DNA of 10,738 bases from a virus (Duplodnaviria > Heunggongvirae > Uroviricota > Caudoviricetes). A model generated the notes under the pieces. It was not told the origin of the DNA. It saw only the letters and a list, made by a program, of their open reading frames with translations, and made no database searches. How positions within the stretch are numbered: position 1 is the stretch's first letter; every line of letters starts with the position of its first letter. Made by a program: the position numbers and the translations under genes. Below, piece after piece: positions 3,901-4,842 of this stretch. The stretch lies in the IMG/VR virus record IMGVR_UViG_2693429518_000023. One strand, written 5' to 3'.

Positions 3901-4179
3901 TTAGGGAAACTGGCGTCTTGCGTGGATCACGTTTACTACTTCAACGCTTGATGTTGTTACGCGGTATAGAATTATATAGTTAGGGTGGGCTACAATCTCA
4001 CGCAAGCCAGGTACTCTGTCGCTTGGTGGGTATAAATACGGATGTTCGGATAACGGCAGCACACAACCCCTTAATCGCTGCCATAAGCGTTCAGCCGCAT
4101 CTATGTCGAAACGAGCAATATAACTAGTTATATCATCTAGGTCGGTATCTGCGCTTTCAAGCCATAACACGGGTAACAT
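3901..4179 (-). CDS. parE2: ParE-family toxin (RelE/ParE superfamily), 92 aa
   Basis: MLPVLWLESADTDLDDITSYIARFDIDAAERLWQRL...REIVAHPNYIILYRV...VNVIHARRQFP is a typical ParE fold signature. ATG 4179 lies 1 nt after the antitoxin stop. Length and sequence fit ParE2 of the paaR2-paaA2-parE2 system as I recall it. Confidence 0.85.
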   Translation of the reverse strand: MLPVLWLESADTDLDDITSYIARFDIDAAERLWQRLRGCVLPLSEHPYLYPPSDRVPGLREIVAHPNYIILYRVTTSSVEVVNVIHARRQFP

Positions 4180-4180
4180 T

Positions 4181-4372
4181 TTACTGCTTGCTCCGTTCCT
4201 TGCGCATCTTAGCAAAGCGTTCTGCCATTCTGCGCTCAACTTCGTCATGGGGAATTGCTGGGCGCGGATCTGCAAGGCTCGTTGCTACTTTCGCACGCAG
4301 CCATTCGTTGTAACTGTTTTCTTGTTCAATGGTTTCAAATTCAGAAACCATTGGTGAAAGGGCTCTATTCAT
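4181..4372 (-). CDS. paaA2: Antitoxin, 63 aa (PaaA2-like)
   Basis: MNRALSPMVSEFETIEQENSYNEWLRAKVATSLADPRPAIPHDEVERRMAERFAKMRKERSKQ. GGAGG 5 nt upstream of ATG 4372. Immediately upstream of parE. The 63-aa size matches published PaaA2. Confidence 0.85.
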   Translation of the reverse strand: MNRALSPMVSEFETIEQENSYNEWLRAKVATSLADPRPAIPHDEVERRMAERFAKMRKERSKQ

Positions 4373-4392
4373 GTTTCCTCCGGTTTTATAAC

Positions 4393-4764
4393 TCAGGCGC
4401 GGCGGCATTTTTGCGCCGCAATCCATCTCGCTATGAGATCTTCCATTGATTCTTTTTTCTGCTTTAACTCGCTGATTATCTGGCGTTGCTCATCCTCAGG
4501 GAAGGCTGAAAAAATCTGCAATAATTCCAGTTGATTAGACGTTAACCCTGCATGTGGTGGAGAAACCCCCGGTTGTTCTGCGTATTCCGCATCCAGATAC
4601 CCTTCCGGCATCCCGTATGTTTGCTCTATTCTTCTGGCAGCCTTTTCTCCAAACGAGGCTCTCCCACTCATTAGTTGAGATAGGTAGCTCTTCTCTTTGG
4701 GTGGCAGAGTTTTATCTTTAAACCACTCCTTGAGACGTAAACGGCGAATTTCTTTTTTTTGCAT
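4393..4764 (-). CDS. paaR2: HTH transcriptional regulator in the cI position (PaaR2-like), 123 aa from ATG 4764
   Basis: N-terminal phage-repressor-like HTH (KEKSYLSQLMSGRASFGEKAARRIEQTYGMPEGYL). Divergent from the cro-like gene. First gene of the operon with antitoxin and toxin. Track start GTG 4827 is probably leader; ATG 4764 has no obvious SD, with GATAAT 6 nt upstream (possible leaderless mRNA). Confidence 0.8.
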   Translation of the reverse strand: MQKKEIRRLRLKEWFKDKTLPPKEKSYLSQLMSGRASFGEKAARRIEQTYGMPEGYLDAEYAEQPGVSPPHAGLTSNQLELLQIFSAFPEDEQRQIISELKQKKESMEDLIARWIAAQKCRRA

Positions 4765-4842
4765 GTGGTAATTATCTTTAGTAATCACTAAACAAGCAAA
4801 TACTTGACTTAATGGTTTATTAAACACTAAACCGAGGAAGGT
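4765..4842. promoter_or_regulatory. Divergent promoter/operator region between the repressor-like and cro-like genes
   Basis: 78-bp intergenic region. TTGACT at 4804-4809; GTTTATTAAAC dyad at 4815-4825; CACTAAAC direct repeats at 4786-4793 and 4825-4832; TTTAGT-N4-ACTAAA dyad at 4778-4793; minus-strand TTGCTT-N17-GATAAT just upstream of ATG 4764. Confidence 0.5.

Follow-up and report, generated by a model that had tools for sequence, protein, structure and literature searches.

Background

It is known that prophage CP-933P (Sp12) of Escherichia coli O157:H7 carries a three-gene toxin-antitoxin (TA) locus, paaR2-paaA2-parE2 (RAE2), that diverges from the gene pair ydaS-ydaT. In a previous work on this locus (Jurenas et al. 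2021, mBio; PMC8630535), electrophoretic mobility shift assays (EMSA), DNase I footprinting, gfp fusions and single-cell reporters identified PaaR2, YdaS and YdaT as the analogues of CI, Cro and CII, respectively. Here we compare with it the locus present in a stretch of 10,738 nucleotides (IMG/VR virus record IMGVR_UViG_2693429518_000023; hereafter, the window), in which the operator region between paaR2 and ydaS is 19 bp shorter.

In the published locus (PMC8630535), the paaR2/ydaS intergenic region (right operator region, OR) is 97 bp long and contains four 18-bp inverted repeats (IR). PaaR2 and YdaS are competitors for the operators in OR and for those of a second site (PL/OL) downstream of parE2, and footprint the 97-bp region over approximately 78 bp and 65 bp, respectively, spanning both promoters. 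PR933P, PRM933P and PL933P (the latter located downstream of parE2 and with -35 and -10 hexamers identical to those of PR933P) are all repressed by PaaR2 and by YdaS. In addition, PRM is activated by PaaR2 at low dose, and a PRE promoter between ydaS and ydaT is activated by YdaT. This locus is bistable: RAE2-on cells disappear when paaR2 carries a stop mutation, and ydaST-on cells disappear when ydaS does, ParE2 being released in neither transcriptional state. The three RAE2 genes are co-transcribed, paaR2 is leaderless like cI according to 5' RACE, and PaaR2 octamerises like CI, lacks a RecA-cleavage motif and does not respond to mitomycin C. The locus stabilises a mini-F plasmid, the phenotype being addiction (post-segregational killing). 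A structural study of YdaT reports the operator TTGATTN6AATCAA, and places paaA2-parE2 where lambda has rexA-rexB and PaaR2 where it has CI (PMC9986795).

Results

The gene order and spacing in the window were the same as those described for RAE2 and ydaS-ydaT in CP-933P/Sp12 (PMC8630535; Hallez 2010 as cited there). The genes and the region between them are:

3901 to 4179, minus strand: parE2, 92-aa ParE-family toxin, last gene of the operon
4181 to 4372, minus strand: paaA2, 63-aa antitoxin without a DNA-binding domain
4393 to 4764, minus strand: paaR2, 123-aa helix-turn-helix regulator, CI analogue, leaderless (counted from the MQKKE start)
4765 to 4842: OR, 78 nt between paaR2 and ydaS, divergent promoter/operator region
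4843 to 5145, plus strand: ydaS, 100 aa, Cro analogue
5142 to 5567, plus strand: ydaT, 141 aa, CII analogue

A previous sequence-only reading of this DNA had proposed three co-oriented minus-strand genes with gaps of 1 nt (parE2-paaA2, position 4180) and 20 nt (paaA2-paaR2, 4373-4392), and the open reading frame (ORF) list and the sequence reproduce these coordinates, lengths and gaps exactly. The 20-nt gap contains a GGAGG Shine-Dalgarno motif for paaA2, and MQKKE is the published N-terminus of PaaR2 (PMC8630535).

Protein searches support the name PaaR2-PaaA2-ParE2 given to the system in that reading, as well as the ParE fold expected of its toxin. The 92-aa product is identical in 92/92 residues to ParE2 of PDB 5cw7_B/5cze ("Plasmid stabilization protein ParE"; E 7e-60), matches Pfam ParE_toxin (PF05016; 1.9e-16, 60.9 bits for a cut-off of 23) and, more weakly, other ParE structures (PDB 3kxe, 6x0a and 5ceg; E 1e-5 to 1e-3). 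Similarly, the 63-aa product is identical to PaaA2 of PDB 3zbe/5cw7 (E 5.5e-37) and matches Pfam PF21217 (PaaA2; 1e-19, 70.7 bits for a cut-off of 27), and residues 1-66 of the 123-aa product are identical to PDB 7nkv/8c3k/8c3l (E 9.6e-41 for 7nkv, whose label, "Phage repressor protein CI", designates the PaaR2 N-terminal domain). Considering these E-values and identity levels, the similarity is far above chance. The DNA of parE2, paaA2, ydaS and ydaT does not differ from that of E. coli O157:H7 FRIK944, and the proteins they encode are identical to those of CP-933P. Full-length PaaR2 differs from that of O157:H7 by a single linker substitution (G67V), an allele shared with strain fS25a. ParE2 toxicity, rescue by PaaA2 and addiction were published for proteins identical to those of the window (PMC8630535).

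Residues 71-119 of PaaR2 (window 4393-4551) resemble the C-terminus of DicA, the repressor of the Qin prophage (NCBIfam PRK09706; E 1.1e-6, below the curated cut-off), which hints at a shared oligomerisation domain; this stretch is the uncrystallised C-terminal part of the protein. No Pfam family matched PaaR2 at E <= 0.01, and hence no S24 peptidase domain was found. PaaR2 works like CI and is not a member of the CI/LexA family. Concerning the divergent pair, YdaS matches Pfam YdaS_toxin (3.3e-12), HTH_3 (6e-07) and, weakly, P22_Cro, and YdaT matches Pfam YdaT_toxin (2.8e-10). These matches, together with the replacement stated in PMC9986795, agree with the cI-rexAB position, diverging from a Cro-like and CII-like pair, that the sequence-only reading had assigned to the operon. 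Accordingly, the paaR2-paaA2-parE2 module, its cI-rexAB placement and its CI/Cro/CII-like wiring are already published, with identical proteins. Only a natural OR allele carrying a deletion is absent from the literature, and its interest is modest.

This allele is the 78-bp OR. Alignment with the 97-bp OR of CP-933P/O157:H7 disclosed an exact 19-bp deletion and no other difference. The deletion sits between two copies of AAACACTAAAC and removes one 19-bp operator unit, IR4; the junction sequence is TTATTAAACACTAAACCGAGG. The promoters and operators of the window are:

4799 to 4771, minus strand: PRM933P, -35 TTGCTT (4799-4794), 17-nt spacer, -10 GATAAT (4776-4771), read from the sequence
4776 to 4793: IR1, operator palindrome CTTTAGTAATCACTAAAC, 16/18 match to the published half-site consensus GTTTAGTAA, overlapping PRM as published (PMC8630535)
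4815 to 4832: IR3, operator palindrome GTTTATTAAACACTAAAC, 15/18 match to the half-site consensus
4804 to 4833, plus strand: PR933P remnant, -35 TTGACT (4804-4809), 18-nt spacer, -10 TAAACC (4828-4833)
3816 to 3789, minus strand: PL933P, TTGACT-16-TAAACT, from the promoter scan
3790 to 3807 and 3812 to 3829: OL operator repeats, 14/18 match each
5135 to 5152: main YdaT operator (OM), TTGATTCATGAAAATCAA, at the ydaS/ydaT junction in the PRE933P region, 0 mismatches
3836 to 3882, minus strand: hairpin between parE2 and PL, followed by GGUUUAGUUUUU

The right half of IR3 (4822-4832) is the single remaining copy of the 11-bp repeat. On the rightward side, the hexamer called as the PR -10 is altered from TAAACT in O157:H7 to TAAACC in the window. 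A consensus scan recovered TTGACT-18-TAAACT in O157:H7, and called no rightward promoter upstream of ydaS in the window. Only 9 nt (GAGGAAGGT) are left from the TAAACC hexamer to the ydaS ATG, so that the ydaS leader is lost, and transcription, if it still starts, would do so within or beyond the Shine-Dalgarno motif. We assign the PR -10 to TAAACT on the basis of the consensus scan, of the -35 and -10 hexamers shared by PR and PL, and of the overlap of IR3 with PR (PMC8630535), and this assignment is probable rather than direct.

On the leftward side the picture is that of CP-933P. PRM is untouched by the 19-bp deletion, and PRM, PL/OL and the YdaT operator are the same as in CP-933P. The A of the paaR2 ATG (4764), which is the +1, lies 7 nt past the PRM hexamer and is not preceded by a Shine-Dalgarno motif; this spacing and the absent motif fit the leaderless expression of paaR2 reported in PMC8630535. 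PRM, IR1 and IR3 are present in the window, the PR consensus -10 and IR4 are gone, and the published binding of PaaR2 and YdaS concerns the 97-bp form.

Both regions singled out in the sequence-only reading as candidate targets of the regulator proved to be relevant: 4765-4842 is OR, where PaaR2 binding is published (EMSA and footprints on the 97-bp form; PMC8630535), and 3788-3818 coincides with the minus-strand TTGACT-16-TAAACT of PL/OL (3816-3789). ACTAAAC heptamers occur three times in the 10.7-kb window, all of them within OR or OL, and OM is the only match in the window to TTGATTN6AATCAA. An operator-like sequence, GTTTATTAAATCATTAAG, is also found 14 nt into the ydaS coding region (4857-4874, plus strand), with a 12/18 match to the IR consensus. 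The hairpin at 3836-3882 had a predicted RNA folding energy of -25.1 kcal/mol (z = -4.97; 0/200 shuffles as stable) and may be the terminator of the paaR2-paaA2-parE2 transcript, although a simple terminator scan of the window did not call it.

The deletion is not confined to one assembly. The window is an exact copy of contig CYAH01000018.1 of GCA_001284785.1, and the same junction, with an identical parE2-to-ydaT core, was found in five further draft assemblies (at least six in total). Carrier contigs were found via a variant of the DUF551 protein encoded in the window, for which 15 contigs are on record. An assembly artefact was considered as the cause of the deletion and rejected, since the junction is present in six assemblies whose differing accession prefixes suggest separate projects.

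In contrast, complete genomes carry the longer form. Approximately 590 of 5,426 complete E. coli genomes contain the 2-kb immunity region, and a 149-nt query, designed with a right arm so short that it cannot seed in the 97-bp form, spanned the junction in 0 of the 593 complete E. coli genomes with the locus (best coverage, 91%). Two apparent 100% matches among complete genomes were rejected because in both of them the 97-bp form is interrupted by IS1203 and the pieces had been reported joined. A megablast of complete E. coli genomes with a 41-nt junction query gave no match and was discarded as insensitive, since its 97-bp control was also unmatched. Exact-pattern scans for the junction found none in GTDB species representatives, IMG/VR and JGI metagenomes, collections with very little sampling of variation within species. 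In complete genomes, the variation of OR is limited to the A-run in the left half of IR4, with lengths of 96, 97 and 98 bp.

The module was also found in an isolated coliphage. Escherichia phage Evi (LR597642.1), from infant faeces, carries at 6122-7807 an intact paaR2-paaA2-parE2 plus ydaS-ydaT with a 97-bp OR, parE2 being present though unannotated in the record. The Evi module is 94.6% identical overall, yet its OR differs by one base only. The near-invariance of OR in complete genomes and Evi indicates that the four-unit OR is conserved, and that the 78-bp allele is young and restricted to a single lineage.

The window belongs to a defective lambdoid prophage adjoining potC. Its order is split integrase, excisionase, truncated 3'-5' exonuclease, DicF RNA, ydfC and PL; then parE2-paaA2-paaR2, OR, the ydaS-ydaT pair, a replication gene resembling O and a DnaC-like gene interrupted by an internal stop; and finally the DUF1627, DUF977 and DUF551 genes and hok/sok. 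Two features close to a 1,651-bp deletion in this prophage are:

2565 to 2616, minus strand: DicF small RNA (sRNA), Rfam 76.7 bits
1101 to 2549: leftover exonuclease ORF

Decay of the prophage around the locus has gone further than in CP-933P, with dicB/ydfD and half of the exonuclease gene deleted, the integrase split and a stop in the DnaC-like gene. At junction 2544/2545, 1,651 bp are missing with respect to fS25a (the closest complete genome) and O157:H7. This deletion covers ydfD (DUF1482), dicB, whose product inhibits cell division, and the part of the exonuclease gene that encodes the N-terminal half, and it ends 20 nt beyond the 3' end of the intact DicF sRNA. The integrase (window 1-801, minus strand) is frameshifted by a 1-nt gap with respect to fS25a, and is called in the source contig as two ORFs, of 266 aa (Arm-DNA-binding part) and 121 aa (catalytic part); the prophage is probably unable to excise. 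The DnaC/IstB-like replication ATPase, a single 246-aa protein in O157:H7, is split into 64-aa (6559-6753) and 169-aa (6790-7299) ORFs on the plus strand, and RefSeq flags an "internal stop" for fS25a. The DUF551 gene (8563-9114, plus strand) shows a 33-bp in-frame deletion (approximately 8879-8888) between 10-bp direct repeats CGTCAACCAA, with respect to fS25a and O157:H7; this is the lineage marker that was used to find the source contigs. A second TA system, of type I, lies at 9411-9736 (plus strand), with a match to the Rfam sok model at 9411-9586 (113.5 bits) and, beside it, a Hok-family ORF made of the final 51 codons of ORF 9524-9736, annotated as hokD in relatives.

Discussion

We regard it as highly probable that the window contains a CP-933P/Sp12-type immunity region from a defective lambdoid prophage, with PaaR2 in the CI slot, and that it is built on the following plan, which is published for identical proteins. 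The paaR2 gene would be transcribed leaderless from the weak PRM along with paaA2-parE2, which fill the rexA-rexB slot. PaaR2 would bind the 18-bp repeats (half-site close to GTTTAGTAA) in OR (4765-4842) and OL (3790-3829), repressing both PL and PR (ydaS-ydaT plus the replication genes) and activating PRM when its dose is low. The Cro-like YdaS would compete for the same sites, and two heritable states would result, whereas the CII-like YdaT would bind TTGATTN6AATCAA at 5135-5152 and switch on leftward PRE transcription. The labile PaaA2, degraded by ClpAP/ClpXP, would neutralise ParE2 by direct binding; a cell losing the locus would be killed, which would make the immunity region addictive. 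The sequence-only reading had suggested that the TA module was wired into a lysis/lysogeny-type switch and had asked whether PaaR2 doubles as the immunity repressor; the bistable PaaR2/YdaS switch and the CI-analogue role of PaaR2 had both been published in 2021 (PMC8630535).

What would be specific to the window is that PR is crippled by the loss of IR4 and YdaS is not made, so that the circuit would be held in the PaaR2-on state, with the TA expressed from an autoregulated PRM and PL off, a situation resembling the published ydaS stop mutant. To judge from the sequence, the switch is probably stuck in this PaaR2-on/TA-on state in the lineage, a reading that we hold at about even chances. As to how the allele arose, unequal recombination between identical operator half-sites may have removed one 19-bp unit, killing PR and sparing PRM, PaaR2 and the TA; we propose this tentatively, at slightly less than an even chance. 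Several points speak against this explanation. Some ydaS might yet be expressed, either from TAAACC acting as a weak promoter or from transcripts that read through from other sites. The assignment of TAAACT as the PR -10 is indirect. Superinfection immunity by PaaR2 is presumed, CP-933P being cryptic. It follows from the altered hexamer that deleting the regulator, which had been suggested as a means of derepressing ydaS/ydaT, might give a flat result in this allele, the consensus -10 being lost via the 19-bp deletion.

It is possible, although we rather doubt it, that the module is simply the known one and the deletion is neutral, with another -10 or TAAACC itself sufficing, three operator units being enough and the locus remaining bistable. 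IR1, IR2, IR3, both -35 hexamers and PRM are indeed intact, as are ydaS and ydaT, identical to those of O157:H7; the left half of IR4 is poorly conserved, varying in length and sequence among genomes, and lambda functions with three OR sites (general knowledge and PMC8630535). However, the change affects the last T of the -10 hexamer, which is generally known as one of the two most conserved promoter positions, and the rightward promoter upstream of ydaS is lost from the consensus scan. A transcript starting 6-8 nt past the hexamer would begin in or after the GAGGA Shine-Dalgarno motif, and the absence of the allele from complete genomes (0/593 with the locus) and from phages is not what a neutral change would lead one to expect. 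A locked switch is, for these reasons, the reading that we prefer.

Other proposals concern the role of the TA genes rather than the deletion. In the sequence-only reading it was suggested that the module could stabilise the prophage or exclude other phages as rexAB does. The first part agrees with the published addiction phenotype (PMC8630535). A RexAB-like abortive infection or exclusion of superinfecting phages, instead of or besides addiction, seems unlikely to us: the position is equivalent to that of rexAB (PMC9986795), some TA systems are generally known to provide phage defence and such a function would be well served by genes expressed together with the repressor during lysogeny, but no PADLOC defence model matches ParE2, PaaA2 or PaaR2, literature searches turned up no exclusion data, and the published work observed no ParE2 activation in either state and showed post-segregational killing (PMC8630535). 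Very improbable, in our opinion, is that PaaR2 and PaaA2 represent the split antitoxin of an ordinary three-component TA system inserted beside ydaST, PaaR2 being no genuine phage repressor. This possibility was raised by the authors of PMC8630535, and the lack of a DNA-binding domain in PaaA2 is in keeping with it. On the other hand, PaaR2 represses PR and PL besides its own promoter, is leaderless and octamerising like CI, and binds OL-like sites approximately 1 kb away (PMC8630535); it resembles the prophage repressor DicA at the C-terminus, and in the immunity region of coliphage Evi the cI position is taken by this module and by no other gene.

The preferred reading, a CP-933P-type immunity region whose switch is probably locked, can be set against other described systems. 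As in lambda, a leftward leaderless repressor gene is followed by two accessory genes, PRM and PR diverge over shared repeated operators in the published 97-bp form (of PR, the window has a remnant), a second operator set lies at PL, and a Cro-like competitor is accompanied by an activator of the CII type, whose PRE lies between the two rightward genes. In contrast to lambda, PaaR2, YdaS and YdaT have no detectable sequence homology to CI, Cro and CII, and the accessory genes are a ParE-type TA pair instead of RexAB. PaaR2 also lacks the S24 autocleavage domain and, because of this, is not SOS-inducible. The published locus has four repeats as opposed to three in lambda, and three remain in the window. 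The same slot is occupied in defective lambdoid prophages of E. coli K-12 by DicA/DicC (Qin) and RacR/YdaS/YdaT (Rac). YdaS and YdaT of Rac belong to the same Pfam families, yet they are only 26% and 31% identical (PMC8630535). The likeness to Qin extends to the resemblance between the C-termini of PaaR2 and DicA and to the DicF RNA downstream of PL in the window. Unlike the window, neither K-12 element has a TA pair behind the repressor. Finally, in the canonical two-gene type II parDE systems a ParE-fold toxin is likewise neutralised by the direct binding of a labile antitoxin; unlike these, PaaA2 has no DNA-binding domain and regulation is given to a separate phage-type repressor (PMC8630535).

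The presence of the module in Evi suggests that a live temperate phage uses it as its working immunity region. Whether PaaR2 is a true immunity repressor could be tested in this phage, which is impossible in the cryptic CP-933P.

If the locked-switch reading is true, a bistable switch of the CI/Cro type would have become a monostable, permanently "lysogenic" circuit, in which the addictive TA stays on while PL and the rest of the lytic side are kept off. It would then represent a natural case of domestication of a prophage switch, consistent with the nearby loss of the host-killing gene dicB. The 78-bp OR is a ready-made natural mutant for establishing the number of operator units that the PaaR2/YdaS switch needs, and it also suits asking whether the TA stays expressed and addictive with the Cro side silenced.

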